A DNA stretch of 64,000 bases from Ignavibacteriota bacterium. GTDB lineage: Bacteria; Bacteroidota; Ignavibacteria; SZUA-365. The stretch is taken from positions 8,101-72,100 of the forward strand of contig JACRFB010000010.1 of assembly GCA_016218045.1 (NCBI GenBank). The letters are read 5' to 3'. The position numbers were made by a program, and so were the translations under genes. The first letter of the stretch is position 1; every line of letters begins with the position of its first letter. This document shows, in pieces, positions 4,194 to 54,314 of the stretch. The notes below the pieces were generated by a model that did no database searches, was not told the DNA's origin, and saw only the letters and a program-made list of their open reading frames with translations.

Positions 4194-4882
4194 ACCTCCG
4201 CCACAGGCGCGATACACGCGCGGAGAAAGTCGACGGCGCTCTGCGGATCCGCGCCATAGGCATCCGCGCCGATGGAGGCGGCGAAGGCGGCGGTCACGGG
4301 CGCTCCGCCGACGATGACGGGTGTGTTCGGAACCGCGGCGTGCACGGCGTCGACAACCTCGCGCATGTGCAGCATGGTGGTTGTGAGCAACGCGCTGACA
4401 CCGACGGCGCAGCCGGGATGCGCGCGCGCCGCTTCGGCAAAGGTCTCGGGCGGCACATCGGTTCCGAGATCGACCACCTCGTATCCCGCCCCGGTTGCAA
4501 TCATGGCGACGAGCTTTTTACCGATGTCGTGCAGGTCGCCGCGGACCGTCCCGATGACAAAGGTGCCGCGCTGCAGAATGTCGTGGGCGCGGAAGTGCGG
4601 TTCGAGATGCGCCATACCCGCGGCCATGGCGCGGGCGGCCAACAGCACGTCGGGCACAAAAACGCGTTTGTCGCGAAACAGCTCTCCGATGCGCGCCATG
4701 CCGGGAATCAATCCCTCGTCGAGCACACGCTGCGGCGGGATGGCGTGTGCCTCGAGCGCGCGCCTCGTCAATTCGTCGGCCCCGTCCTGCCCGCGCAAAT
4801 CGGGCGGATGTGGTGAGGCGGCGTCGCGTTTCCCGCGTTCAACGCATAGTGCAAGGGCTTCGAGAAGTTGCCTGTCGTCCAT
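4190..4882 (-). CDS. Corrinoid (cobalamin-binding) protein, MtaC/MtbC-like: N-terminal helical cap plus a Rossmann-like B12-binding domain
   Basis: DxHxxG B12-binding signature GDLHDIGKKLV, followed by G-rich Rossmann segments (AMIATGAGYEVVDLG, VGVSALLTTT). The start is probably ATG 4882 (MDDRQLLEAL); the track ORF runs to 4912. Confidence 0.7.
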   Translation of the reverse strand: MDDRQLLEALALCVERGKRDAASPHPPDLRGQDGADELTRRALEAHAIPPQRVLDEGLIPGMARIGELFRDKRVFVPDVLLAARAMAAGMAHLEPHFRAHDILQRGTFVIGTVRGDLHDIGKKLVAMIATGAGYEVVDLGTDVPPETFAEAARAHPGCAVGVSALLTTTMLHMREVVDAVHAAVPNTPVIVGGAPVTAAFAASIGADAYGADPQSAVDFLRACIAPVAEV

Positions 4883-5013: not shown

Positions 5014-6204
5014 CTAATCCATGATCCTCCTGAGGAAAGGAGCTTTTTCGCGTTCAACGCGCTGATGCTGCTGCGTATCGTGTTCCGCCTCGCTCTCATC
5101 CTCGACGGGCCGCGGGTACTTGCGGATGTATGCCGGAGGATCGAGGTCCTTGAGTTCGGTCAGTCCCGAAGGGATGTGCAGGGGACGCGCGGCCGCCATG
5201 GGTTTCGCGGCGGGCATGGTCGGACGCCGGCCTCCCACATGACGCTGATTGAAGCCGGTTGCGATGACGGTCACCATCATCTGATCGCCGAGAGTTTCGT
5301 CGAGGACCGCGCCGAAGATCACGTTCGCCTCTTCGCCCGCCGCCTCGGTGATGATGTTGCCGGCTTCCTCGAGCTGCACGATCGACATCTCGGAACCGCC
5401 GGTGAAGTTGATGAGCACGCCGCGTGCGCCGGCGATGGTGACACCCTCGAGCAGCGGGTGTGAAATGGCGTTGTGCGCGGCTTCGACGGCGCAGTTCTCG
5501 CCGCTCGCGATGCCGCTGCCCATGAGCGCGTCGCCCATGTCCTTCATGATGGTTTTCACATCGGCAAAATCGACATTGACGATGCCGCGCTTCGAGATGA
5601 TGTCGGCGATGCCGCGTGTGGCGTTGAAGAGGACCTGATTCGACATGCGGAACGCGTCCGGCACCGACGTGGCCTTTTCCACAAGCGACATCAGCTTCTG
5701 ATTCGGGATCACGATGAGCGTATCGACGTGTTTGCGCAATTCCTCGATTCCCTCTTCGGCCTGCGCCATACGGCGCTTGCCTTCGAAATGGAAGGGTTTG
5801 GACACGATGCCCACAACGAGCGATCCGAGGCCTTTGGCGATGTTTGCCACAACCGGGGCTCCGCCCGTTCCCGTGCCGCCTCCCATGCCCGCGGTGATAA
5901 AGACCATGTCGCTGCCACTGAGGGCCGCGGTGATCTCTTCCTTGTCTTCCTCGATCGCGCGATACCCCACGGAGGGATCGGCGCCCGCGCCCAGACCGCG
6001 CGTGAGGTTTTTCCCGGCCTGGATCTTGTACTGCGCGCCGCTCGAATCCAGCGCCTGGTTGTCGGTGTTGATCGCGATGAACTCGACTGCGTCGAGACCA
6101 CGCGCGATCATGTCGTCCACTGCATTTCCTCCGGCACCGCCCACACCGACGACACGGATTTTCGCCCGGTCGCTGGTCTGCTTGTCCAGCATGATTGGAT
6201 ACAT
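5014..6204 (-). CDS. ftsZ: Cell division GTPase FtsZ
   Basis: Tubulin signature GGGTGTG, N-terminal IRVVGVGGAGGNAV, Pro/Gln-rich C-terminal linker and conserved C-terminal peptide. AGGAGG SD lies 7-13 nt upstream. Confidence 0.95.
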   Translation of the reverse strand: MYPIMLDKQTSDRAKIRVVGVGGAGGNAVDDMIARGLDAVEFIAINTDNQALDSSGAQYKIQAGKNLTRGLGAGADPSVGYRAIEEDKEEITAALSGSDMVFITAGMGGGTGTGGAPVVANIAKGLGSLVVGIVSKPFHFEGKRRMAQAEEGIEELRKHVDTLIVIPNQKLMSLVEKATSVPDAFRMSNQVLFNATRGIADIISKRGIVNVDFADVKTIMKDMGDALMGSGIASGENCAVEAAHNAISHPLLEGVTIAGARGVLINFTGGSEMSIVQLEEAGNIITEAAGEEANVIFGAVLDETLGDQMMVTVIATGFNQRHVGGRRPTMPAAKPMAAARPLHIPSGLTELKDLDPPAYIRKYPRPVEDESEAEHDTQQHQRVEREKAPFLRRIMD

Positions 6205-27083: not shown

Positions 27084-29033
27084 TCAACCGAAGGTGACAA
27101 GCTTCGGATTCGTGTCCATCGTGACTTCCATGAAGACGCGGGTCACAACGATGGCAGTGTACATCGAACAGAGGATACCGATCATCAGCGTCAGCGCAAA
27201 ACCCTGAACGGGACCGCTGCCCAACTGGTACAGGATGATACACGTGATGAGCGTGGTTAGGTTCGAGTCGATGATGGCGGGCATGGCGCGTGAATATCCC
27301 GCGTCGAGAGCGGCGCGCAGCGTCTTGCCCGTGCCCGCTTCTTCGCGGATACGCTCGTTGATGAGCACGTTCGCGTCCACAGCCATACCGACAGTGAGCA
27401 GCATACCTGCAATGCCTGGAAGAGTCAGTGTCGCGTTGAATGCCGCAAGCACGCCGAGGATAAACACCATGTTGAAGAGCACCGCGACATCGGCGGTGAA
27501 ACCGGCGTACTGGTAGTAGATGAGCATGAAGAACATGACCAAGCCGACGCCGATGAGGAAGGAGTTGATACCGGCGTTGATCGAGTCCTCGCCGAGCGAC
27601 GGACCGACGGTGCGCTCTTCGATAATATCGACGGGGGCGGGAAGCGCACCGGCCTTGAGCACGATCTCGAGCAGGCGGGCTTCATCCATATTGTCCATAC
27701 CCTCGATCATCGAATTGCCGCCGATGATTTTCTGGCGGACGTTCGGCGCCGAGAAAACGGCGTCGTCGAGCGCGATGGCAATTTGTTTGCCGACGTTTTC
27801 ACCGGTGACACGCGCCCATTCGCGCGCGCCTTCCGTGTTCATTTCCATGGTCACGATCGCGCCGCCAAAACCTTCCTGGCTCATCTGCGCGCGCGCGTCG
27901 GTGATGACTTCACCGGTCAGTTCCGGCTCGGCCTTGAGGGCGTAAAACTCGTAGAAGTCGGTGGTGTTGCCGTCCTGTGTCTGCAGCTTCTGCGATTTGG
28001 CGCTCCAGGCGAACTGCAGATCCGACGGGATAAGACGACGCACATCCGGTCGCGAAAGGATGCGGTTGATACGGTCGCGGTTCTGCGCGGGGGCGAGTAG
28101 CTGCACGGCGCCGTTCTCGAATTGACGCGAGGAGAAGAGGATTGTGAACGGCATTTCCTTCTGCGCGCGTGCAAGCGCGGTGTCCTTCGGCGCGGCTGCG
28201 GAATCCTTGCGCTTGGCGCTGTCGGCGGCGGCAATCGTCTTTGTGGTGTCGCCCTTGACGCTGTCGGCCTTTGCGGTGCTGGCCGTGTCGAGCAATGTAT
28301 TGATGTCCGAGCCGGAGAGAAGCTTGTTGATGTTGTCCATGGTGGACTGAATCAGCTTCGGCTCCGCAAGCAGCTTGAATTCGAGCTGGGCCGTCTCCTG
28401 AATGAGCTGACGCACTTCGCGTTCATTGCTCACGCCGGGAAGTTCGAGGATGATACGGCGGCTGCCCGAACGCGTGATCGACACTTCGGATACGCCGTAC
28501 TTGTCGATTCGGTTCCGGATGATCTCCATGGCGCGGTCGACGGCCTTGTCGGACTCGTCCTGCAGCATGGCGATGATCTCGTCGTTCGAGCTTCGAAGTT
28601 CCCCGTAGTAGCGGCTCAGGCGCTGATTGCGCTCGGCAAACTTGCGTTTGAAGATGTCGAGTATCGATTCCTCGCTCTCGGCCGCTTCCTTCGTTGTCTC
28701 TTCCAGAATCTGGCGCAGGTTCTCGTCCTTGTTCCGCGCGATTTTGTCGAGCATCTGCGCGATGTTCACCTCGAGCGTCACGTACATGCCGCCCTGAAGA
28801 TCGAGGCCGAGTTTAATGCGTTTCTCGCGCGCGTTGCGAATGCTCTCTTCGTTATCGTCGAGATACTTCGTGCTGTCCTCGCCACGCAGACCGAGCAAGG
28901 TGTCCTGATGTTGGGAGTCCGTCCAGGTGGGATACAGGAAATATCCCGTCAAGGCGAGAAACGCCACGATCAAAATGATGCGAAACCGGTTTTTCTTCAC
29001 GGCCTGTCGGACCTCCGTCAACATGGAAAACAC
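27084..29033 (-). CDS. secD: Protein-export membrane protein SecD
   Basis: N-terminal TM, large periplasmic domain, C-terminal six-TM SecD domain (LGLDLQGG, GPSLGEDSI). Confidence 0.9.
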   Translation of the reverse strand: MFSMLTEVRQAVKKNRFRIILIVAFLALTGYFLYPTWTDSQHQDTLLGLRGEDSTKYLDDNEESIRNAREKRIKLGLDLQGGMYVTLEVNIAQMLDKIARNKDENLRQILEETTKEAAESEESILDIFKRKFAERNQRLSRYYGELRSSNDEIIAMLQDESDKAVDRAMEIIRNRIDKYGVSEVSITRSGSRRIILELPGVSNEREVRQLIQETAQLEFKLLAEPKLIQSTMDNINKLLSGSDINTLLDTASTAKADSVKGDTTKTIAAADSAKRKDSAAAPKDTALARAQKEMPFTILFSSRQFENGAVQLLAPAQNRDRINRILSRPDVRRLIPSDLQFAWSAKSQKLQTQDGNTTDFYEFYALKAEPELTGEVITDARAQMSQEGFGGAIVTMEMNTEGAREWARVTGENVGKQIAIALDDAVFSAPNVRQKIIGGNSMIEGMDNMDEARLLEIVLKAGALPAPVDIIEERTVGPSLGEDSINAGINSFLIGVGLVMFFMLIYYQYAGFTADVAVLFNMVFILGVLAAFNATLTLPGIAGMLLTVGMAVDANVLINERIREEAGTGKTLRAALDAGYSRAMPAIIDSNLTTLITCIILYQLGSGPVQGFALTLMIGILCSMYTAIVVTRVFMEVTMDTNPKLVTFG

Positions 29034-29121
29034 TAATTGCGCTGTAATTTCCGCGCAAATTCGTTCAGGACATCAAATATAGAAACGCGGCGATTCAAAG
29101 TCAAACGGCCGCGGGGTCTTG

Positions 29122-39762: not shown

Positions 39763-41907
39763 TCAGCGTCCAATCACAAGCGGCCGGGTAACCAGGTCGG
39801 TTCCGTCTGTGAGAATCACTGTATAGTGACCGGCGGGGAGATCCCCCGTGAGGAGGGTTGCCGAGGAAACGCCCCTGGACGTTGACTCTTCCGTGATATG
39901 GCGCAGCTCACGCCCGTGGACGTCGTGGAGGAAAATGTGGAGCCCTGTTCCGGACGTTGATGCATACGACAGTGTTACCAACGCACCCTGCGCAACAGGA
40001 TTTGGATACGGTGCACTGAGCGTCAAGCCGGCCGGTGGGGTAAAGCTCACAACTACCGGATTCGAGTATTCGAAGCCGCCTGTCCGGTCTATCTGTTTCA
40101 GTCGATATCGCAACGAGGTTCCGACGCGGTCGGCGTCTTTATCCACAAAGGTGTAGTCGCGTGGTGTATTCACCGTGCCTCCTCCGTCGGTGAACCCCAC
40201 TTTTTCCCACTCTCCGTCGGCACACTGCCGCTGAATCTCGAATCCGTGATTGTTCGACTCGGTGACCGTACGCCATGTCAGGCGCGCATCATGACCGATC
40301 GTGCGCGCGGCAAAGGCGACGAGTTCCACAGGCAGTGCGTTGTCGATGGTCAGCACGACCCCGTTGCTGTTGGCATCGTAGAGATAGGCGCCGGTATCGG
40401 CATAGGCGACTCTCGCAAAATTCGGCGCCTCATACAGGCCGGGCGGCGGCGGAGTAAATGTGGCGGGATCTTCGATCAGCGTCTGGAAACGCACGTAACG
40501 GATGGAGTGTTTCAGGAGCTGCCCGCCATTGGCGGATGTCGCGGCATTCCCGACGCCGACAACAACGCGGTCGTTGACGGCATCGAAGTACCCGGCATCT
40601 GCGTCGTTTGCATCGGTCAGTGTGCTCCAATTGATATTGTCCATCGACACTTGCATGGTACCGGCCATATAATCCTGCAGTGGTGGTATCGTGTCGATGA
40701 GCACGACATTCAGCGCATTCTCATCACCGATGTTTTCGATGTTGAAATGATACTGCACCGTGCGGTTTGCAACGGTGTTGGGTGGTATGCCCACCATTTT
40801 CGAAACGGAATATGTATTACTTCCCGACTCATAGAACCGCTTCTCGACGGTGACCGCGGGCGCCTTGCTCTCGGTTTCGAAACTCATGACTCCCGGGTAG
40901 TACAGGTCGCCGTCGGTGCGGAATCGTACGGTGGTGGATGTGATGTCGTTGCCGAGCACACCAGATGTTGATACGATGTCGATGTCGTATCCCAGTTGAT
41001 TTGTGAAATCGGGATTCTTGTCTGCAAAACGGGTCCCGAACATCGATATGCTGCTGTTGAAGAAATTGGTAGACGGGTTTTGCGCATCGCTGAGGTACAC
41101 TGTCGGTCCGAGCCGCAGCCGGTCATCGGTAAGCCCCGCATCACCCTCGAAGGCGATCGAACCGACGTTGGTTGTGACTGTGCCGGTCGATGGTGTTTTG
41201 AATCCGGTCAAGGTGATGGTCTCGGAGGAATTCGGATCGAGCACGCGATACCCGTCCCAGATCACAAGATTGCGCAACGGCTCGCTGCTGAAATCCTTGT
41301 ACACAACAACGAGCGACCAGCCGGCGCAAACTCCGTAGTCGTTGTACGGAGTCACAATGTTTGCCGCGTAATAGGTGCCGCTGCCGCCCGTACGCACAAT
41401 ATCCGTGACATCGTAGTACCCCTGATATGCGTACCAGCCGCGGTAATTGTAGTTGCTGATATCGTCCTGCTGCACCGCGGTGTAGGTGGTATACGCTCCC
41501 GCGTCCTTGCGCAATTTGATCTTGAAGCGGTTGCCGTACGCATTCGCCGACACGCCGCTCTGTGAGTATCCAGAGGCGGAGTATCCATGCCAGTACAGTC
41601 CGGCCCAGAGTATGCTGTCGGAGGGCACCGGCAGACTCAGATCGGCGGAACTCGAGTTGAAGGTGCTGCCGTCGGAATCGACGTCCACATGACGCATGTA
41701 ATACGAATCGTTGTTCGCACTGCCGCTGCTGTTGCCGCCGGTCGTACTCCCCGACGACGACGTGTAACCTCGCACATTCACGTTCCCGATCATCACGATC
41801 TTGCCCTTGACGTTAAAACCCACGCGTTTGGTGAACGTCCTTTGCGAAAAGGCGCTGCCGACGATCACACCAATAAAAATGAAGGTGACGAATGACTTGG
41901 AAAGCAT
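39763..41907 (-). CDS. Large secreted beta-rich protein with a T9SS C-terminal sorting domain, preceded by a conserved roughly 70-aa pre-CTD module
   Basis: Signal peptide MLSKSFVTFIFIGVIVGSAFSQ. C-terminus LSAPYPNPVAQGALVTLSY...LHIFLHDVHGRELRHI...GHYTVILTD is CTD-like. Pre-CTD module LPVELVAFAARTIGHDARLTWRTVTESNNHGFEIQRQ...YRLKQIDRTGG is shared with the 1-625 gene. Confidence 0.6.
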   Translation of the reverse strand: MLSKSFVTFIFIGVIVGSAFSQRTFTKRVGFNVKGKIVMIGNVNVRGYTSSSGSTTGGNSSGSANNDSYYMRHVDVDSDGSTFNSSSADLSLPVPSDSILWAGLYWHGYSASGYSQSGVSANAYGNRFKIKLRKDAGAYTTYTAVQQDDISNYNYRGWYAYQGYYDVTDIVRTGGSGTYYAANIVTPYNDYGVCAGWSLVVVYKDFSSEPLRNLVIWDGYRVLDPNSSETITLTGFKTPSTGTVTTNVGSIAFEGDAGLTDDRLRLGPTVYLSDAQNPSTNFFNSSISMFGTRFADKNPDFTNQLGYDIDIVSTSGVLGNDITSTTVRFRTDGDLYYPGVMSFETESKAPAVTVEKRFYESGSNTYSVSKMVGIPPNTVANRTVQYHFNIENIGDENALNVVLIDTIPPLQDYMAGTMQVSMDNINWSTLTDANDADAGYFDAVNDRVVVGVGNAATSANGGQLLKHSIRYVRFQTLIEDPATFTPPPPGLYEAPNFARVAYADTGAYLYDANSNGVVLTIDNALPVELVAFAARTIGHDARLTWRTVTESNNHGFEIQRQCADGEWEKVGFTDGGGTVNTPRDYTFVDKDADRVGTSLRYRLKQIDRTGGFEYSNPVVVSFTPPAGLTLSAPYPNPVAQGALVTLSYASTSGTGLHIFLHDVHGRELRHITEESTSRGVSSATLLTGDLPAGHYTVILTDGTDLVTRPLVIGR

Positions 41908-44917: not shown

Positions 44918-45325
44918 CTACAGCGAGGTTCGCGGAATATTGTCAGGATGGGCGTCGGCGGGCTTGCCCTCATACTTCGAGGGACATTTTGTCAGGACTT
45001 CACTCGCGTGAAAGGCACCCTGCTCGTACCGGCCTTTTGCGACGATGCTCGTCGCGATATCGAAATTGTTCGGTTTCCCGCCGGTGAGCACCACCTTCGC
45101 GACACGGTTTTCCTCGTCGCGCATGTAGAATGTGAAGGTGTGCGCCTTGCTGTCGTAGCGCGCGTCCATCTCCTTCACCCACTTGCCGGTGACCTGCACC
45201 TTTTTGCCCGAATTCTCGGCCTTGCTGATGGTGGCGTACTCGATGGAGCTGTTCAGGAACGAGTATCCGCCGACAGCGAGAAAGATCAGCACGACCAGTC
45301 CGCCGATGATATACCGTTTTTTCAT
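44918..45325 (-). CDS. ccmE: Cytochrome c maturation heme chaperone CcmE, variant with CxxxY in place of HxxxY
   Basis: N-terminal membrane anchor, OB-fold region, and C-terminal flexible motif LTKCPSKYEG aligned to E. coli LAKHDENY. Confidence 0.8.
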   Translation of the reverse strand: MKKRYIIGGLVVLIFLAVGGYSFLNSSIEYATISKAENSGKKVQVTGKWVKEMDARYDSKAHTFTFYMRDEENRVAKVVLTGGKPNNFDIATSIVAKGRYEQGAFHASEVLTKCPSKYEGKPADAHPDNIPRTSL

Positions 45326-46506: not shown

Positions 46507-47202
46507 TTACTCTTTCCAGACAAAATCGAACAGAAGATACGACGCCGTGACCACCACGGCACAATACGACACAAGCAATTGCAGATCGGGCCAGGCCTCA
46601 TTCCATGTGTTCCCTTCTATTGCCGTTTTTGTGGCGGAGATTCCCGCCATGAGCAGGGGCAGAAGGATCGGGAATGAGAGAACGGGAAACAGCGTACCCT
46701 TGGTGTTCGCCTTCGCGATGATGGCGGCAATGATGGTTGTAGCGGCGGCTGTCGCGACACTGCCGAGGGCAATGACCGCGAGGAACAAACCCGGCTGATT
46801 GACACGGATCTCGGGCAGGAACACAAGGAAGAGCGCGACAATAAACGCGTTGAGCACAAGCGACAGTACCACGTTGAACAGCAGCTTTCCGAGATACACG
46901 GAACTCGGACTGCACAAAAGCTGCAGCGCCAGCGACGTGCCGCGCTCCTCTTCCGCGACGAAGGAGCGCGAGAGTCCGCTCATCGCCGCAAAAAACATGA
47001 CCACCCACAGGAGACCCGCGTGTACGGCCCGCCCCAGGGTCTCGCCGGCAAGTGCAAAAAGAATGACGGCAATCGCGACTACCACGAACATGAACAGCGC
47101 GTTGACGGCGTAGCGCGTGCGCAATTCCGAGCGCACGTCCTTCGCGAAGACGGCGGAAGCCCCGCGGCGCAGACTCACCGGGACACCCCGGCGGCAGACC
47201 AT
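46507..47202 (-). CDS. ccmB: Heme exporter membrane protein CcmB
   Basis: Six-TM protein; N-terminal region aligns with E. coli CcmB (…ELRTRYAVNALFMFVVVAIAVILF vs …LELRVAFRHSAEIANPLWFFLIVITLF). Confidence 0.75.
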   Translation of the reverse strand: MVCRRGVPVSLRRGASAVFAKDVRSELRTRYAVNALFMFVVVAIAVILFALAGETLGRAVHAGLLWVVMFFAAMSGLSRSFVAEEERGTSLALQLLCSPSSVYLGKLLFNVVLSLVLNAFIVALFLVFLPEIRVNQPGLFLAVIALGSVATAAATTIIAAIIAKANTKGTLFPVLSFPILLPLLMAGISATKTAIEGNTWNEAWPDLQLLVSYCAVVVTASYLLFDFVWKE

Positions 47203-47366
47203 TTCACGATATCAGATGTGCGCGTTTTCATCCTAATCGCGAAATATACAAAAATTCGGATGCCGCACGAAGCAAATAGCGCGACCCCGTCCCGCACCTG
47301 CGACCCTTGCCGGGTGCCTGCTCACCGCCTCTCGCGGTGTCGCAGACACGGACACGCGAACTGGAG

Positions 47367-50300
47367 TTACTTCAGGAAACCGGCAATCAGTGCGAGGAGC
47401 TGTTCGCGCTGAAAGGGTTTCGGAAGGTACTCGTTGCACCCCGCGTCAAAGCAGCGCTGGCGGTCCGCCGGAAAGGCGTGCGCGGTCAACGCGATGATGG
47501 GGAGGGTCGAGAACCGGGCCTCCGTACGCAGCGACTGCGTGAACTGCAGCCCGTCCATGTCTCCGTGCAGGGAGATGTCCATCAGAATAATGTCGATGCG
47601 CTGCGCGTTCAGGATCTCGAGCGCCTGCGGAGCCGACGAGGCGACACGTACATTGTAGTGTCGCGAAAGGAGCAGCGACATGTACTGCTGGCTCTGGATG
47701 TCGTCCTCCACCACAAGCACGCAACGCGCCGCCGCGTCGTGCGCATTGCGCGCGGAATTTTCGCCCGAGGCGGAGTCGCCCGCGATGGAGCCGCTGCCCG
47801 CATCGAGCGGGAAGAATAGGGTGCACACGGTTCCGTGTCCTTTGTGACTGTCTATCGATATCATGCCCTTGCTCACTTCCACGTAATGGCGTGTCAGTGC
47901 CATGCCGAGTCCCAGCCCCTCGAAGGGCCGCGTTGTGCCCGAAGATTCCTGGGAGAATTTTTCGAATATTCTCGGGAGGTATTCATCCGATATTCCGATT
48001 CCCGAGTCGGCTACGTCGATGCGCGCCCACGCATCCTCGATGGCGACACTGATGATGACGTTTCCCCGCTCCGTGAATTTAATGGCGTTGTCGAGCAGGT
48101 TTATCAGGGCCTGCTCAAGTGTGTAGCGATCGACGGTCGAGAACGCCGCGAGACAGGTGCTCTCGTGTTTCAGCGCGACCCCCTTTGCCTCGGCAATCGG
48201 CCGCATGTCGGTGGCGAGCGACTCGGCGACGTCGACGAGGTTGACGGTTTCGAAACGCGGTGTGTATGTGCCGGCCTGTATGCTTGAAATGTTCAGGATT
48301 TGCTCGACTGTGCGCAGGAGGCGGCGGCCGGAGCGCTCGATGGTGCGGAAAAATATGAGGTGTTCGGCATCGATGCGGTCGCGGTACATCTCGGAGATCA
48401 AATCCATGAATCCGATGATCACATTCAGCGGCGTGCGGATCTCGTGCGACATGTTGGCGATGAAGATATCCTTCAGTTGATGCGACTTCTCGGCGCTCTC
48501 CTTTGCCGCGATCAGCGCGTCCTTCGCCTCGCGGCGCAGTGTCACGTCGTTCGCCACGCTCAGTATGCCGGGTGAACCGTCGGGCAATGTCATGGCGGTT
48601 TCGCGCAGTTCCATCCAGCAGGTGCTGCCGTCCTTGCGAATGTTCATCACCTCGTGCTCCATCACCTCGCCGGCGATGATGCGGGCCGCGTGTCCGTCGA
48701 TGAGATGGTGTTCATCTGGAGGGACGACGATGCGGATGTTCTTCCCGATAAGTTCCTCCCTGCCGTAGCCGAACGCCGCGCTCAACGAGGGATTGATGTC
48801 GAGTATCGTCCCGTGCGCGTCTTCCACGATGATCCCCGAGGGAGAGAGGTCGAAAAGAGCCCGGTAACGACGTTCGTTTTCGCGCAGCGTCTGCTCGGCG
48901 GATTTCCACGCGGTCACGTCGGTCATCATGCCGACCATGCGTGAGTGTTTCCCGTCGATGGGATCGAGGAAAAATCCCCTGTCGAGGAACCACACCCAGG
49001 CGCCGGACTTGTGACGGAAACGGTACTCCACTTCGTAGGCGGAACCGGCCTCCTCCGCTTGTGATAAAAGCAGGAGCGACAGCTCGCGATCCTCAGGGTG
49101 GATCAGGTCGGACCACTGCGCGATCCCCGCGTTCATTTCCTCGAGCGAGTAGCCAAGGACGGTATCGATGGATCCGCCCCATTGAATTGCGCCGCTCTGA
49201 ACATCATAATCGTACACGATCTGCCCCGAGGCTGCGGTGACGCTTTCATAGAGGGTTTTCCAGCGTTCGATTTCCCGCTCGGCGGCGGTGCGATCGGTGA
49301 CGTCACGCGCAATAGCGAGGCGCGGTCCTAGTTCGAGGTCCTCCGCGGGCATGGGAACAACCAGCGTCTCGTACACACGGGCGCCGACGCGGCTTATTCT
49401 GCCGGTCCGCACATCGTTGTCCGCTCCCGAAAAAAGGGTCCGCAGCGAATTCTCCGCCTCCGCGTCCCCGCCGCGGGGAAGCAGGGATTCCCATTTGCGG
49501 CCGATTGCCATCTCGGGTGTCAGCCCGATAATCGCCGCGCCGACACCGTTGCAGTACGAGAGCACTTCATCCGCGTCGACAATAAATATTCCGTCAGGCG
49601 CGGCTTCTGCCAGCGTACGATAGCGTTCCTCGCTGCGGCGCAGGGCGTGCTCCGCCATGCGTCGCCCGGTGATGTCGCGCGCGAAGCCGACGAATTCGAT
49701 GGGTTTCCCCGTCTCGTCGCGTTCGATGTTGACCGTGACATCGGCCCAGAGCACGCTCCCGTCCTTGCGCATATACCGTTTCTCGAAGCGTGTCGACGAG
49801 CGTCCCTCCGTCATCATCGCATGCATCAACATCTCCTCGCGTGCGATATCGTCGGGATGTGTGAAATCGTAGGGGGTCATGCTCGACAATTCGCTCTGCG
49901 AATAGCCCGTCAATGCGGCGAACGCGGCATTGGTCTCGCAAATGCGGTACGCGCCGTCGACGCGCACAAAGCCGACCGCGGAATCCTCGTACACGCCGCG
50001 GTACTTCTCCATGCCGCGCTGCAAGTCGGCGTATTTCTCACATTCCACGCTGATATCGGTGAGCACGGCAACGAGCTGAACGGGCCGGCCATCCGCCGAT
50101 GCGGTGGTGAGGCATCGTTCACGCAGCATGGCCGGGAGTCCGCAGCCCGGAGCTGTGGCGAATTCGATCAGGGTGTTGCCCGGAGTCGAAAGAGCCGAGC
50201 GCACAAGGTCGAGTGTCGTGGCGAGTGCATCAGGGTGGACGATGGCTCTGTGGAGCAGATCCGCGTCAAGGTGGTTTCCGTCAACGCCGAGGGCGGTCCG

Positions 50301-50528
50301 CAACGCGGCACTCATCGACGCGACTCGATTCTCCCGCAAGTCCACGACATACACCAAGTCACCGAGTGCTTCGAGAACGGTTGCAAAATCCACGGTCGCC
50401 AAGGCATCGCTGTGCCCGCGCTCCTCGTCGGTTGGGTGTTCAGTGCCCGCGCTGCGGTTGTGTCGAAAGGCCATCGTGATAGGTGGTCCGTCAGTGCAAT
50501 GATGGAGTTGCGCGCCGGGGCGCAACAC
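47367..50528 (-). CDS. Hybrid sensor histidine kinase/response regulator with multiple PAS domains (PAS x about 5, then HisKA, HATPase_c and REC)
   Basis: Repeated PAS blocks (e.g. ...RFRHKSGAWVWF..., ...IRKDGSTCWMELRE...), H-box NMSHEIRTPLN, GLGLGMAL G-box, C-terminal receiver CVLVVEDD...DIILMDISL. A possible alternative start is at 50474 (MAFRH). Confidence 0.8.
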   Translation of the reverse strand: MLRPGAQLHHCTDGPPITMAFRHNRSAGTEHPTDEERGHSDALATVDFATVLEALGDLVYVVDLRENRVASMSAALRTALGVDGNHLDADLLHRAIVHPDALATTLDLVRSALSTPGNTLIEFATAPGCGLPAMLRERCLTTASADGRPVQLVAVLTDISVECEKYADLQRGMEKYRGVYEDSAVGFVRVDGAYRICETNAAFAALTGYSQSELSSMTPYDFTHPDDIAREEMLMHAMMTEGRSSTRFEKRYMRKDGSVLWADVTVNIERDETGKPIEFVGFARDITGRRMAEHALRRSEERYRTLAEAAPDGIFIVDADEVLSYCNGVGAAIIGLTPEMAIGRKWESLLPRGGDAEAENSLRTLFSGADNDVRTGRISRVGARVYETLVVPMPAEDLELGPRLAIARDVTDRTAAEREIERWKTLYESVTAASGQIVYDYDVQSGAIQWGGSIDTVLGYSLEEMNAGIAQWSDLIHPEDRELSLLLLSQAEEAGSAYEVEYRFRHKSGAWVWFLDRGFFLDPIDGKHSRMVGMMTDVTAWKSAEQTLRENERRYRALFDLSPSGIIVEDAHGTILDINPSLSAAFGYGREELIGKNIRIVVPPDEHHLIDGHAARIIAGEVMEHEVMNIRKDGSTCWMELRETAMTLPDGSPGILSVANDVTLRREAKDALIAAKESAEKSHQLKDIFIANMSHEIRTPLNVIIGFMDLISEMYRDRIDAEHLIFFRTIERSGRRLLRTVEQILNISSIQAGTYTPRFETVNLVDVAESLATDMRPIAEAKGVALKHESTCLAAFSTVDRYTLEQALINLLDNAIKFTERGNVIISVAIEDAWARIDVADSGIGISDEYLPRIFEKFSQESSGTTRPFEGLGLGMALTRHYVEVSKGMISIDSHKGHGTVCTLFFPLDAGSGSIAGDSASGENSARNAHDAAARCVLVVEDDIQSQQYMSLLLSRHYNVRVASSAPQALEILNAQRIDIILMDISLHGDMDGLQFTQSLRTEARFSTLPIIALTAHAFPADRQRCFDAGCNEYLPKPFQREQLLALIAGFLK

Positions 50529-50672
50529 AGGCAGCGAGGCGCAGCGGTAGTGTGCCCGCGTGTGTGCCTTGTTCGACTGTGAATCTAGGGCAGTGGGATG
50601 CCAAGGTCAAGACGCCCGGCTCTTTTATTCTGCGATTTCGGCATGTGTATCGCTCCGGGGCGGGCGATGAGG

Positions 50673-51284
50673 TCAGCCGAGCCGCACGATGCGGTCGCAC
50701 TGGTCCACGTCGGACTGATCGTTCGAGGCGATGATCACACATCCCTGCTTTCGCTGGCGGGACACGATCGCATACACGGCGGCTATCCCGTCGGCATCAA
50801 GATTCGAAATCGGTTCGTCAAGAAGAAGGAAGGACGGGTTGTGTATCGTCGCGAAGAGCAGCTTCATGCGCTGTTTCATGCCGGAGGAAAATGCGCGGAT
50901 CGGATCCTTGCGTCCTGGAGGCAGGCCCACTCCCTCGATGCGCGCGCGTAGATCATCGCGCGAGAGCCGCAGTCCGCGCGCATCGGCGTAAAACGCCAGG
51001 TTCTCCTCAGCGCTGAATTCGTCGAACAACTGCAGATACGGGGCCACGAATCCGAGATGCTCGTGCAGGACCTCCATCGGAAGTGTCACACCGTCGCGCG
51101 TGTATTCCACACTCCCGGAGTTCGGCTGCAACAGCCCCGCAATAATTTTGAGCAATGTGGACTTCCCCGACCCGTTGCGGCCCGTAATGCCGACCACTTC
51201 CCCGGCGGACACATCGAACGACACATCGTTCAGGATGCGCGAGCGGTGAAATGACTTTGTGATGTTCCTAACCGCGATCTGCAC
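50673..51284 (-). CDS. ccmA: Short ABC ATPase, CcmA-like (heme exporter ATP-binding protein)
   Basis: 203 aa, Walker A GRNGSGKST, signature-like FSSGMKQR, Walker B LLLDEP. Size and architecture match CcmA, but the call rests mainly on proximity to ccmBCDEF. Confidence 0.65.
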   Translation of the reverse strand: MQIAVRNITKSFHRSRILNDVSFDVSAGEVVGITGRNGSGKSTLLKIIAGLLQPNSGSVEYTRDGVTLPMEVLHEHLGFVAPYLQLFDEFSAEENLAFYADARGLRLSRDDLRARIEGVGLPPGRKDPIRAFSSGMKQRMKLLFATIHNPSFLLLDEPISNLDADGIAAVYAIVSRQRKQGCVIIASNDQSDVDQCDRIVRLG

Positions 51285-51287
51285 GGA

Positions 51288-53012
51288 TCACCTGCGCACG
51301 ATGACAAATTTACCGCTGTGCATCGTGCCGCCAACATTCAACACAAACACGTAGATACCCGACGCGGCATTCTCACCCGCATCGTCGCGGCCGTTCCAGG
51401 CGATGTACCGCCCAAACGTGGGATCACCAAGTATGGCGGCATCCTCGAGCAGCGCGATTCTGTTCATGCTTCCCGTAAAGATCGCAAGCGTGCCGCGCGT
51501 CTGCGGCACGCTGTTCGGCACCGAGACGCGCGCTATGCCGTCACCGGCGGGATCGTACGGATTCGGCGAGAAATAGACTTTTCGATCCGGTATGGCTCCT
51601 TTTGAGTACACGTTCAGGCACAACATGCCGGGGCTTGCGGGAAGGAAGCGGTACCCCCACCCGTTGCCCACCGGCAGATATTCGGCGCCGTATCCGCTGG
51701 TGCGTATGTCGATGGTGAACTGCACGGGGGCACCCCCGCCCCCTGTCGCCGCCTGCACGGCGGCCGTGAGATTCACCTGCGAGACCGAGAATGCCGCGGT
51801 GTCGGCATCCATGGCGGCGCGCATGTACACGGTGGCATAGGGCGAGACCGCGCCCGACAGTGTCGCGCTGCCGTTTGTGACCGCGATGGTTGAAGCGATC
51901 TTTACGGTGGGATACGATGCGGCCTCGTCATACCGTTCCGACGGCGCGGCGTCCGCGGCCCTGTAGCCCGTGTAAAAATTCCAGCGCGCAAAGGCGCAGT
52001 ACTCGATCGAGAGATCGCTCGGATCCGTGCTCGCGCGCAAGGCGTCGTCGAGCGCGAAGTACGGGTGCCGCGAGCGGATCCCCTCCCAGGTCCGGCGCAT
52101 CAGCGTCGTGTCGTGGCGGCGTTCGAGCATTTTCGGCAGAAGGACGAGAGGATACCCGTAGGCGCCCCACGCGTGTATCGAACGTTCGGGGAATGTAAAC
52201 AGCCCGCTGCTGCCGCCGAGGTACTGGTAATAATCGTTGACGTCGGGATACACCTCGTCCTCATAATAGACAGACGTCAGTTCGTGTATGTAGCGGTCGT
52301 CGAGCAAGAGCCCGTAACTTCCCATCTGAATCATATGGTGGAACTCGTGTGCCGCGGTGACTTTGGCGCCCTCGAGTCCCTTCGAAAAATATCCGCCAGC
52401 AAAATCGTTGTCGATCTCAATAAACGACGTGAATATTGGCTGCACGGTCGTGGATGGGATACGATCGACCCATTGCGTATTGCCGTAATCGGACCCCACG
52501 TTGCGGAGGAAGATGTTGTACGTATTCTGCCCCGCTTCGAACGGCGGTGCCTGATAGCCGCGTTGCAGCACTTCCACCACATAGGTGTGATCAAAGAATG
52601 CCGCCACGGCCTCCGCGTATGCGCGCGATGTGCCGCGGATTGGCGTCTCCGTCGCATCGATCATCGCGGCCATGTGCGTACCACTTGTGTCGTAATGGAT
52701 GCGGAAACGTCCGGAAGGACTGAGGAGCGACATGTCGTACGTGGCCGGCGCAAGCAGGCGGCGCATTGTGGCACGGTCCGCCGGCGACATGGTTTCTGCG
52801 CGGCGCGCGGTTTCGATGGTCCAGCCGAAACCGCATCCCGGCACAATACGCTGCTGGAGCGTGTTGCCCGGCGCGCGGCCCGAACGATATTCCGCGAGGC
52901 GCTGAAGGAACTCGGCGTCGCTGAGCGCGCGCAGATCGATGTCCTGCGCGCTAGTCCAGATCGGCGCGATGAACACGAGCACAAGGGCGGAAAGTGAACG
53001 TCGCGTTTTCAT
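51288..53012 (-). CDS. Secreted zinc metalloprotease-like protein (HExxH) with a T9SS C-terminal sorting domain
   Basis: Signal peptide; AAHEFHHMIQ (HExxH). C-terminal KVYFSPNPYDPAGDG...ASGIYVFVLNVGG...GKFVIVRR is CTD-like. Confidence 0.6.
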   Translation of the reverse strand: MKTRRSLSALVLVFIAPIWTSAQDIDLRALSDAEFLQRLAEYRSGRAPGNTLQQRIVPGCGFGWTIETARRAETMSPADRATMRRLLAPATYDMSLLSPSGRFRIHYDTSGTHMAAMIDATETPIRGTSRAYAEAVAAFFDHTYVVEVLQRGYQAPPFEAGQNTYNIFLRNVGSDYGNTQWVDRIPSTTVQPIFTSFIEIDNDFAGGYFSKGLEGAKVTAAHEFHHMIQMGSYGLLLDDRYIHELTSVYYEDEVYPDVNDYYQYLGGSSGLFTFPERSIHAWGAYGYPLVLLPKMLERRHDTTLMRRTWEGIRSRHPYFALDDALRASTDPSDLSIEYCAFARWNFYTGYRAADAAPSERYDEAASYPTVKIASTIAVTNGSATLSGAVSPYATVYMRAAMDADTAAFSVSQVNLTAAVQAATGGGGAPVQFTIDIRTSGYGAEYLPVGNGWGYRFLPASPGMLCLNVYSKGAIPDRKVYFSPNPYDPAGDGIARVSVPNSVPQTRGTLAIFTGSMNRIALLEDAAILGDPTFGRYIAWNGRDDAGENAASGIYVFVLNVGGTMHSGKFVIVRR

Positions 53013-53524
53013 TCGCCGGACCTCGCCATCGCGATGCGCCGCTCGAGCCGCATGTTGCGGCGTATCAACGCCTGGTCGAAACGCCGTGATTCCGCTTCCG
53101 TTTCAGGGATGACCTGCGGACTCTGCGTCGGCGTGCCTTCGGCGTTTAATCCCACAAATGTCATGTACGCGGAATTCGTGTGACGCACTTCCCCGCTGCG
53201 GATGTTCTCGGCGAATACTTTCACGCCGACTTCCATCGAGGTCCGGAACACACGGTTCACCGACGCGCGCAACACAACCACTTCACCCAGGCGGACCGGA
53301 TGCAGGAAATCAATCTGGTCGACGGAGGCCGTAACGCAGACCAAGCCCGCATGGCGCGCCGCGGCGATGGCGGCCGCGATGTCCATCAGGTGCATCAACT
53401 TGCCGCCGAGCAGGTTGCCGAGCTGATTCGTGTCATTCGGAAGCACCAATTCCGTCATCTCGACATGCGAGGCGCGCACGGTATGTTTGCGCGGCAATGA
53501 TTCCATCCCATCCTCCATGGTCAT
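53009..53524 (-). CDS. Acyl-CoA thioesterase (hotdog fold, YciA-like)
   Basis: LPNDTNQLGNLLGGKLMHLMDIAAAIAA hotdog thioesterase motif. The start is taken at ATG 53524 (MTMEDGM). Confidence 0.65.
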   Translation of the reverse strand: MTMEDGMESLPRKHTVRASHVEMTELVLPNDTNQLGNLLGGKLMHLMDIAAAIAAARHAGLVCVTASVDQIDFLHPVRLGEVVVLRASVNRVFRTSMEVGVKVFAENIRSGEVRHTNSAYMTFVGLNAEGTPTQSPQVIPETEAESRRFDQALIRRNMRLERRIAMARSGE

Positions 53525-53537
53525 GTCCCGCGCGGAG

Positions 53538-54314
53538 TCACTTCGGGCGCGCGTTGCTCCGCGTTTCGGCGGGCAGGTCGGCCCGCAGTGCCGCGACATC
53601 GTCGCGAAGCGGACTCGTGGGGTACTTCTCCAGAAACTGTGTGATGCGGTCGCCTGCCGCGGCATATTGTTTGCGCGAGATAAGCGCGCGGATTTTCATC
53701 GCCGCGGCGTCGTCGACGTACTCGGTGCTGTAATACTTGTCGATCACCGTATCGAAGTACACTTCGGCCGCGCGCGCGTTTTCGAGTTTCATGTACAGCA
53801 GGCCCGTGCGATACTCTTTCTCGGCGAGGCGGTTGATGAGGCCCAGCATGTCCTTCTCCGCGTCCGCCGCCTTGGGGTGCTTCGGATTCGTTTCGATAAA
53901 GGTCTGAAGCGCATCGATCGCGCGCATCGTGTAGGTCTGATCGAGCGCGGCCTTGGGCGACAGTTCCACATAACACCGCGCGTACATGTACTGGGCCTCG
54001 GTCTGCAGCGCGGGTGAGGAACTCACCTGTCCGATCTGGCTGAACTCGTAGCTGGCAAGTATGTACTCCTCACGATTGAAGCGGCTCATGCCCATGAAGA
54101 ATCTGGCGCTGTCGGCCACAGGGCTGGTGGGATACTGCAGACGAATCACCTCGAAGTGCTGTATCGCGTCGAAATAATCCTCGTCGGCATACTCGGCCAT
54201 GCCGAGCCGGAAGCGCTGCTCGGCCGTGGGGATATCGGCGGGTGTTGTCGAACTGCAGGCAGCGCAACACACCGCGAGAACCGCGGCTGCGACGATAGGA
54301 AGGGTGCGTGACAT
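53538..54314 (-). CDS. bamD: Outer membrane protein assembly factor BamD (TPR lipoprotein, YfiO family)
   Basis: Lipobox AVCCAACS; TPR-like helical repeats (…YADEDYFDAIQHFEVIRLQYPTSP…, …EKEYRTGLLYMKLENARAAEVYFDTV…). Confidence 0.7.
   Translation of the reverse strand: MSRTLPIVAAAVLAVCCAACSSTTPADIPTAEQRFRLGMAEYADEDYFDAIQHFEVIRLQYPTSPVADSARFFMGMSRFNREEYILASYEFSQIGQVSSSPALQTEAQYMYARCYVELSPKAALDQTYTMRAIDALQTFIETNPKHPKAADAEKDMLGLINRLAEKEYRTGLLYMKLENARAAEVYFDTVIDKYYSTEYVDDAAAMKIRALISRKQYAAAGDRITQFLEKYPTSPLRDDVAALRADLPAETRSNARPK

Follow-up and report, generated by a model that had tools for sequence, protein, structure and literature searches.

A 64,000-nucleotide stretch of DNA from an Ignavibacteriota bacterium (contig JACRFB010000010.1 of assembly GCA_016218045.1, positions 8,101 to 72,100; hereafter the window) carries a cluster of System I cytochrome c maturation (ccm) genes in which a gene for a hybrid histidine kinase rich in PAS domains separates ccmA from ccmB. 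On balance, the most probable account of this arrangement is that a soluble hybrid kinase was inserted long ago between the two genes, that it is expressed from a promoter of its own while transcription of ccmBCDEF is re-initiated behind it, and that its receiver is the part retained; a role in cytochrome c maturation is conceivable, though nothing but the position of the gene points to it. The comparative evidence supports a kinase insertion that is old, vertically inherited and confined to one small subclade of uncultured Ignavibacteriota. The lineage-specific variant of gene order is real, and the protein is a hybrid kinase of an ordinary type in an unusual but explicable place.

The case for an insertion begins with gene order. 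The minus strand from 42.2 to 53.7 kb of the window forms a single string of co-directional genes, from a thioesterase gene through ccmF. For comparison, 80 loci around relatives of CcmB were fetched from one-genome-per-species contigs, and the proteins of the window were mapped onto them. The order thioesterase, MXAN_6640-family gene, ABC ATPase gene, ccmB, ccmC, ccmE and ccmF is kept across about 70 loci. The ATPase gene and ccmB lie at most 100 nt apart in 63 of 77 related loci, an adjacency that spans Ignavibacteria, Kryptonia and Kapaibacteria-like metagenome-assembled genomes (MAGs), and in the closest clade with adjacent genes the ccmA stop and the ccmB start overlap as ATGA. Upstream, the MXAN_6640 gene directly precedes the ATPase gene in nearly all relatives and ends 3 nt before it in the window. 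Because of this conserved synteny with ccmB, the ATPase gene is identified as the orthologue of ccmA, in line with the original prediction, which had been drawn from the letters of the window; since the two neighbors are usually adjacent in relatives, the 3.1-kb kinase gene has been inserted into what is otherwise the usual order. Of the two explanations offered at that stage, one was a later insertion splitting the operon, and it is the one supported: almost all relatives have ccmA beside ccmB with the same upstream genes, and the kinase is limited to one subclade. Open reading frame (ORF) and Pfam evidence also agree on the starting observation, a co-directional PAS-rich kinase with HisKA, HATPase and REC domains between a CcmA-like ATPase gene and ccmB. 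The flanking gaps, first given as about 145 and 165 nt, were found to be 144 nt on the ccmA side (counted from the GTG start of the kinase; 198 nt from the ATG) and 164 nt on the ccmB side.

Orthologues of the kinase are few. A search of 5.8 billion proteins returned only two divergent ones, P0122 (51% identity, 928 aa) and P0123 (52%, 905 aa), after which the next matches are generic multi-PAS kinases at no more than 30% identity. Both are encoded in the order ccmA, kinase, ccmB, and the near-identical copies at loci L082 and L083 (95–97% identical) have the same layout. The arrangement is conserved in relatives, as a synteny check proposed earlier had asked: both divergent orthologues and all receiver-only derivatives examined (see below) stand between ccmA and ccmB. 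The G+C content of the gene (0.58–0.62) is the same as that of its flanks. Old, vertical inheritance is supported because divergent orthologues share the slot, the copies share the layout and the G+C content matches the surroundings. Along the protein, conservation is uneven (alignment A1). The PAS content varies, P0123 being without the N-terminal region and P0122 without PAS3; the N-terminal region is 29% identical in P0122, and PAS2 is 32–48% identical in the orthologues. PAS4, the best-conserved sensor domain, reaches 54–71% and the DHp domain 67–84%, with PAS4, DHp, CA and REC all falling between 54 and 84%. The kinases of the window and of locus L088, on the one hand, and that of L089, on the other hand, are homologous over PAS1, PAS2, PAS4, DHp, CA and REC.

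The kinase ORF occupies positions 47367–50528 of the minus strand and counts 1053 codons from its GTG, while public annotation starts the gene at ATG 50474; the resulting product of 1035 aa has 100% identity with NCBI MBI5645800.1, “PAS domain S-box protein [Ignavibacteriota bacterium].” Its Pfam matches (PAS_3, 7.9e-51; PAS, 3.9e-49; PAS_4, 4.8e-39; HisKA, 5.6e-15; HATPase_c, 5.9e-24; Response_reg, 2.2e-25) are far beyond chance. The H box reads MSH677EIRTPLN, with His677 as the phospho-accepting residue, and the catalytic ATP-binding (CA) domain presents the N (LLDNAIKF), G1 (DSGIGI), F (IFEKF) and G2 (GLGLGM) boxes. In the receiver (REC), every orthologue and every receiver-only form retains D924/D925, the phospho-acceptor D966, T997 and K1019 (alignments A1, A4 and A5). 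With these five boxes and the catalytic residues of a fused receiver, the protein is, by its motifs, a HisKA-family hybrid histidine kinase; it misses every NCBIfam equivalog cut-off by a wide margin. It has no hydrophobic segment (the maximum Kyte-Doolittle mean over 19 residues is 1.42) and no CXXCH motif. The Pfam scan gives no match to an HPt domain (PF01627) in this protein, which ends 5 residues past REC, and the Pfam and NCBIfam scans found no DNA-binding output domain. The gene product is a soluble cytoplasmic hybrid kinase in which about five PAS domains are followed by DHp, CA and REC.

The fate of this gene in sister lineages shows which part matters. The slot between ccmA and ccmB in L005, in the contig that encodes P0244, in L174 and in L085/L086 holds only a receiver ORF of 143–167 aa, with 60–62% identity to the receiver domain of the window in L005 and L085. 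These ORFs carry 20–45 extra N-terminal residues with differing end-points, which match the last stretch of the CA domain together with the linker behind it (“MISIESTTGS” compared with “GMISIDSHKGHGT” in the kinase); the N-terminus of L005 (“MSSPIN...PPDAGDG”), compared with “MSFPIE...PPEAD” in P0123, is likewise a remnant of the CA end and linker. In a tree of concatenated CcmA, CcmB, CcmC, CcmE and CcmF, L005 pairs with the kinase-bearing L089 as its sister (100 of 100 bootstraps). In the REC-domain tree, all ccm-linked receivers form one clade (200/200) within which the kinases do not group together, nor do the receiver-only forms (0/200 each). Most simply, these data would mean that the hybrid kinase is ancestral and that its 5′ part was truncated at least twice, in at least four sister lineages. 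The ratio of nonsynonymous to synonymous substitution (dN/dS) of REC is 0.02–0.23, with dS saturated. Because the catalytic residues are invariant and dN/dS is this low, the receiver has stayed functional under purifying selection. The comparison thus demonstrates that selection keeps the receiver, whereas sister lineages lost the sensor and kinase portion by at least two separate deletions. A scan of metagenome contigs with receiver alignment A4 gave, among the matches listed, only generic receivers at no more than 46% identity.

Motifs on both sides of the gene bear on its expression. Upstream of the kinase, the TTG and TA..TTC columns of a predicted sigma-70-like promoter are invariant in the window, L082, L088, L089 and the receiver-only locus L085, and the rest of the spacer is unalignable (alignment A3). 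Downstream, a (C)GTATATT box precedes ccmB in every insertion-bearing locus, including those with an unrelated insertion of the L003 type (see below), and TATATT occurs in only 6 copies in the whole window, both strands considered. Distant relatives with ccmA-ccmB spacers of 50–60 nt carry TTGAAN-17-CGTATTTT at this place, and a sigma-70-like pattern lies within 110 nt of ccmB in 26 of 76 loci, where 0.036 would be expected per 120 nt. The kinase gene therefore looks like an independent unit with its own predicted promoter, placed upstream of a putative ccmB promoter. The earlier statement that no obvious terminator follows the kinase is roughly right for the window, where only a weak hairpin (47298–47278) is found; it does not extend to L088, which has a strong canonical hairpin and TTTTT at the same relative place after the kinase. 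A promoter of the Bacteroidetes type (TTTG ... TAnnTTTG) was also considered upstream of ccmB and was rejected, since an exact TAnnTTTG occurs only in L005 and the spacing in the window is unsuitable; a T-tract followed by TATATT fits the conserved element better. Elsewhere in the window, TTGACT-17-TATATT (29085–29104, minus strand) stands just upstream of a secD-like gene (27084–29072) and is, among the six TATATT copies, the only match to TTT-N(1–5)-TATATT besides the ccmB box; this motif suggests that the organism uses promoters of the sigma-70 type with −35 and −10 elements. In the stretch from the TATATT box to the start codon of ccmB, prediction gives stable hairpins in the window (47203–47242), in L089 (3490–3550) and in L005 (9920–9979). 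Their sequence is not conserved, and they may represent structure in the 5′ untranslated region or be meaningless.

The closest relatives outside the ccm cluster point to a possible source. The next-closest receivers (50–58% identity) are 123-aa single-domain proteins, and in the two cases examined such a receiver gene directly follows the gene of a 1061–1083-aa REC-PAS/GAF-HisKA-HATPase kinase, beside alr (alanine racemase). The core of the alr-linked kinase is 40% identical to that of the window kinase (unrelated kinases reach at most 28%) and its 123-aa receiver is 54% identical. L093, which carries the alr-linked pair, and L023, in which ccmA is adjacent to ccmB, are contigs of one assembly. 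The ccm-linked kinase thus likely arose from an alr-type kinase and receiver pair by duplication or relocation plus fusion.

Taken together, these elements would describe the following course of events. The kinase gene would have entered the ccmA/ccmB junction in the common ancestor of a small subclade of Ignavibacteriota, to be inherited since; its likely source would be an alr-type kinase gene and a single-domain receiver gene, joined by fusion. The kinase would now be transcribed as a self-contained unit and ccmBCDEF re-initiated from the TATATT box just downstream, as the motifs suggest, so that ccmA and ccmB would no longer be translationally coupled here. As for the protein, a cytoplasmic signal read by the PAS array would control autophosphorylation of His677, as the intact motifs lead one to expect, and the phosphoryl group would move from His677 to Asp966 of its own receiver. 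Since there is neither an output domain nor an HPt domain, the output would have to depend on contacts with other proteins or on a phosphorelay partner encoded elsewhere. The kinase may have a role in cytochrome c maturation, but nothing other than the position of its gene indicates one.

The same cluster has also received other genes. In a sister lineage represented by L003, L084 and L087, a separate 5.3-kb insertion between ccmA and ccmB consists of OAD_beta (oxaloacetate decarboxylase beta), a REC-PAS-histidine kinase gene and a PAS-GAF-histidine kinase gene. Its kinases were considered as relatives of the window kinase or of the alr-linked kinase and were discarded as such, as their cores are just 21–28% identical and their receivers unalignable; this insertion is independent. 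A second MXAN_6640 gene is found between ccmB and ccmC in L007 (9420–10931), L010 (10812–12452) and L019 (10761–12458). The cluster therefore tolerates, or attracts, insertions, and since it takes unrelated ones, position becomes weaker as evidence of function. The additional MXAN_6640 gene of L019 is accompanied by a duplicated 3′ fragment of ccmB. Tandem duplications of 20–24 nt, in up to 4 copies, affect the overlap of ccmA stop and ccmB start in L014 (about 5590–5680, “CCGTGGAGGCCGCATGATGT” repeated) and L016 (about 4380–4440), which suggest slippage or instability at the ccmA/ccmB junction.

Several points weigh against the account given above. Both promoters, as well as the absence of read-through from ccmA, are deduced from motifs. 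In L005 the receiver gene begins 7 nt after the ccmA stop and must therefore be co-transcribed with ccmA there, which a real link to Ccm would also lead one to expect. In the Ccm tree, bootstrap support for the clade that unites all bearers of the kinase and of its receiver remnants is no higher than about 54%. The position has been kept over considerable divergence, as a true functional link to Ccm would also give, and the second, independent arrival of two-component genes at the same junction could be read as functional attraction. The PAS domains may still bind a cofactor, either flavin adenine dinucleotide (FAD) or another ligand, on which sequence alone gives no verdict. Finally, the origin by duplication and fusion is proposed from identities of 40 and 54%.

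The best-surviving alternative is that the protein is a dedicated Ccm regulator, whose PAS array detects heme, O2 or the redox state and whose phosphorylated receiver tunes either export by CcmAB or ccm expression. This is essentially the sensor function that the original prediction had suggested, and we consider it unlikely. In its favor, every known member of the kinase and receiver lineage lies between ccmA and ccmB, in seven independent lineages, and the receiver is kept there under purifying selection even after loss of the kinase, in L005 at only 7 nt from ccmA. There is also a precedent, as in Bacillus subtilis the two-component genes for ResD and ResE share an operon with resABC, which serve cytochrome c biogenesis. 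Low O2 and NO are the signals to which ResE responds, and ResA is a thioredoxin that acts in cytochrome c maturation (PMC4409812). Surplus uncomplexed CcmB is reported to be harmful (PMC11868835), so that the balance between CcmA and CcmB would plausibly be worth regulating.

The sensor chemistry of the PAS domains bears on this alternative. PAS4, the best-conserved sensor domain, has the heme PAS of FixL (1d06, E = 1.2e-12) as its best match in PDB, which favors a Ccm regulator; the FAD-binding PAS-A of MmoS (3ewk) comes second at 1.8e-12. However, the proximal His that FixL-type domains carry on the F-alpha helix (RmFixL His194, BjFixL His200) is missing: in the HMMER alignment to 1d06, Ile592 pairs with it (“hhlIdgh” vs. 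“rheHdgy”). The one His common to all three orthologues, His589, is the first of an “HH” pair and lies three residues N-terminal to Ile592; the second, His590, is Glu in P0123. The FG loop of PAS4 is 4 residues shorter than in FixL, with a gap opposite “kriigidr” of 1d06, so that the FixL-type FG loop, whose Ile/Arg residues close the heme pocket, is not reproduced; the propionate-binding Arg is lost in P0123. The best solved relatives of PAS1 are LOV domains, yet SMTPYDFTHPD replaces the flavin-cysteine motif GRNCRFLQG. The LOV motif GXNCRFLQ with its adduct Cys is absent from both domains, PAS4 carrying GKNIRIVVP at the aligned position. Overall, the structure-match alignments of PAS1 and PAS4 and the CXXCH scan revealed no canonical heme-b, heme-c or LOV signature in the PAS domains of the kinase.

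Further observations speak against a dedicated regulator. The protein has neither a DNA-binding or other output domain nor an HPt domain, and its gene has its own predicted promoter. CXXCH occurs in no ORF of at least 100 aa in the window, and genes for cytochrome c substrates are therefore absent from the surroundings of the ccm cluster; neither the ORFs scanned in the window nor the called genes of L001 include c-type cytochrome genes, HPt proteins or DNA-binding regulators. A fixed position is the default outcome of vertical inheritance where the whole gene order is conserved, and the repeated loss of the sensor in sister lineages is hard to square with an essential heme or O2 input. The absent heme and LOV signatures, the lack of an output domain, the promoter motif of the kinase and the disposal of the sensor by its sisters together argue against the sensor function originally put forward.

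A more specific possibility, which we regard as quite doubtful, is that the receiver, fused or free, is a phosphorylation-dependent partner of CcmAB that gates ATP hydrolysis or the assembly of CcmA with CcmB, and hence the delivery of heme to CcmE. Such a partnership would explain why the receiver, and not the sensor-kinase part, is always kept between ccmA and ccmB. The ATPase encoded by ccmA has its Walker A (GRNGSGKST), signature (SSGMKQR) and Walker B (LLLDEP) motifs, but Asn replaces the H-loop His (“IIA[ST]N[DE],” about 50700–50720) in the ccmA orthologues of all 32 clade members inspected, also when judged against the alignment with ABCA3; gating by the receiver is conceivable because CcmA of this clade has lost this catalytic residue. 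Post-translational two-component control of cytochrome c maturation is not yet described.

Very doubtful, in turn, is the view that the kinase is a functionless or nearly functionless passenger heading for loss. Repeated loss of the sensor-kinase part in sister lineages and the differing number of PAS domains among orthologues would fit a decaying gene. Against this, the ORF of 1035 codons is intact across three lineages that are only 51–52% identical, all catalytic boxes are present, the core is 65–84% conserved, dN/dS of REC is far below 1 and the promoter motif is conserved. It appears highly improbable, too, that a single-domain receiver gene was the original insert, to which an upstream kinase gene was fused at a later time to give the long kinase. 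Receiver-only forms do outnumber full kinases at the junction, the basal lineage L085 has only a receiver, and the nearest paralogues are split into a kinase and a 123-aa receiver. However, the extra N-terminal residues of the receiver-only forms align with the last CA strands and the CA-REC linker and end at different points, the homologous kinases of the window and L088 and of L089 stand on both sides of the deepest split of the REC tree, and L005 is nested beside the kinase-bearing L089.

Lastly, the ATPase might belong to another transporter, such that no ccm operon was interrupted. It scores 117.1 bits with the ccmA model TIGR01189, below the cut-off of 131.6 though among its top three NCBIfam matches, and 113.2 with NF010061 (cut-off 195); the GldA and lantibiotic-protection ATPase models score similarly, so that the score alone is ambiguous, and a PDB sequence search returns only generic ABC domains (e.g., ABCA3 and ABCA4), which leaves the ccmA identity undecided by structure matches. 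This alternative is hardly tenable, as ccmB is the only permease gene near the ATPase gene, the orthologue abuts or overlaps ccmB in most related loci as described above, and a length of about 200 aa fits ccmA (198 model positions).

The inserted hybrid kinase with a retained receiver thus remains the account that we favor, and the coordinates of the features on which it rests are given in Table 1 with those of the remaining cluster.

Table 1. Features of the ccm cluster, the inserted kinase and related loci (window positions unless a locus is named).
Feature	Position	Strand	Basis and remarks
Hybrid histidine kinase, coding sequence	47367..50474	-	1035 aa; open frame reaches GTG 50528
N-terminal region, approximately aa 25-150, candidate degenerate PAS (“PAS0”; putative fold)	50025..50402	-	Without Pfam match; alignment A1
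PAS1, aa 156-270	49665..50009	-	Pfam PAS
PAS2, aa 283-400	49275..49628	-	Pfam PAS_8, PAS_7
PAS3, aa 417-527, PAS_3 type	48894..49226	-	Pfam PF08447
PAS4, aa 541-652, adjoins kinase core	48519..48854	-	Pfam PAS_4, PAS_9
DHp (HisKA) domain, His677	48270..48473	-	Pfam PF00512, 5.6e-15
Catalytic ATP-binding (CA) domain	47802..48131	-	Pfam PF02518, 5.9e-24
Receiver (REC) domain	47385..47720	-	Pfam PF00072; retained in every lineage
Predicted sigma-70-like promoter of kinase, TTGACC-17 nt-TAGATT	50582..50610	-	Consensus scan and alignment A3
Weak hairpin, doubtful terminator	47278..47298	-	Terminator-like scan: 7 pairs, poor T-tail; 70 nt past kinase stop
T-tract and TATATT box, likely -10 of putative ccmBCDEF promoter	47243..47254	-	40 nt upstream of ccmB ATG
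Hotdog-fold (4HBT) thioesterase	53009..53665	-	Pfam PF03061, 2.1e-21; syntenic in most of 80 related loci
MXAN_6640-family HExxH putative metalloprotease	51288..53012	-	NCBIfam NF045524, 155 bits vs. cut-off 140
ccmA orthologue, 203-aa ABC ATPase	50673..51284	-	TIGR01189, 117.1 bits; PF00005, 7.5e-30; synteny
ccmB	46507..47202	-	PF03379, 66 bits vs. cut-off 24.9
ccmC, 317 aa	45536..46489	-	TIGR01191, 4.1e-26; L082 equivalent of 317 aa with PF01578
ccmD_alt, 40 aa	45344..45466	-	ORF listing; 40-aa L082 counterpart carries PF20077
ccmE	44918..45325	-	PF03100, 2.7e-15
ccmF, 890 aa	42207..44879	-	PF01578, 4e-27; PF16327, 1.7e-17
L003-type insertion	L003 4700-9990; L087 4700-10000; L084 1-4150		
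alr-linked kinase and 123-aa receiver pair	L090 4662-8372; L092 and L093 4733-8372		Closest paralogue of window kinase core and receiver

Among the remaining genes of the cluster, ccmB scores 27.8 bits with TIGR01190, under the cut-off of 156; its product has 3836 homologues, several of which bear the name heme exporter protein B at JGI and NCBI. CcmC has an N-terminal extension of about 115 aa common only to close relatives, distant loci aligning from about residue 117, and CcmF continues for about 190 residues beyond its CcmF_C match. Pfam and NCBIfam scans and synteny mapping recognized neither ccmG nor ccmH in the cluster, and an Rfam scan of the whole window gave no RNA family at threshold. 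Directly downstream of ccmF, a 714-aa protein (39763–41907, minus strand) shows a sub-threshold match to the type IX sorting domain PF18962 (20.9 vs. 27 bits), which fits an organism of the Fibrobacteres-Chlorobi-Bacteroidetes (FCB) group.

Compared with the canonical System I set ccmABCDEFGH (e.g., of E. coli), the window shares ccmA, B, C, D, E and F in canonical order on one strand. It differs from it in that ccmA is tied to the thioesterase and MXAN_6640 genes, the kinase splits ccmA from ccmB, ccmG and ccmH are not recognized, CcmA has Asn at the H-loop, and ccmC and ccmF are unusually long. No described case of two-component genes inside System I ccm clusters was found in the literature. 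The resABCDE genes resemble the window in that a gene for a PAS-containing sensor kinase is embedded, in the same direction, in a cytochrome c maturation cluster. However, they belong to System II and encode a membrane-bound ResE and a DNA-binding ResD, whereas the System I cluster of the window is without a DNA-binding partner; the window kinase gene lies mid-cluster and the ResE gene at the end of its cluster, and their homology is limited to the generic kinase core.

As to the protein, ArcB, TorS, BarA, LuxQ and HrmK (NF038297, the best equivalog match) similarly combine PAS modules, a HisKA-HATPase core and a fused receiver; the window kinase scores 252 with HrmK against a cut-off of 725 and 229 with ArcB against 838. 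It lacks the HPt domain of the ArcB, TorS and BarA type as well as a membrane anchor and a periplasmic domain, and no cognate DNA-binding regulator is encoded nearby. With FixL (1d06, 1dp6), PAS4 shares a ...DG...R... stretch of the F-alpha helix, whereas the window protein combines five PAS domains in a hybrid kinase, is without a FixJ partner, and has Ile in place of the proximal His and the shorter FG loop. The ccm-linked receiver-only forms and the 123-aa alr-linked paralogues are, like CheY, DivK and CpdR, REC domains alone with complete catalytic residues, and some sources annotate them as “CheY-like.” In contrast to CheY, DivK and CpdR, they have no chemotaxis or cell-cycle context, and the ccm-linked forms are truncations of a hybrid kinase that keep a disordered N-terminal remnant.

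If the receiver did act on CcmAB, it would represent the first two-component input directly on System I heme export and would offer a handle on the control of heme flux to CcmE, which would be relevant given the harm reported for excess free CcmB (PMC11868835). The two independent arrivals of kinases at the junction of ccmA and ccmB remain a curiosity, and the locus as a whole advises caution against inferring function from position alone. The established parts provide an example of an operon junction opened by a signaling gene, and of a hybrid kinase that repeatedly decays to a free receiver with its position preserved. For annotation, this means that the short genes of these MAGs labeled “CheY-like” and lying between ccmA and ccmB are remnants of the kinase.

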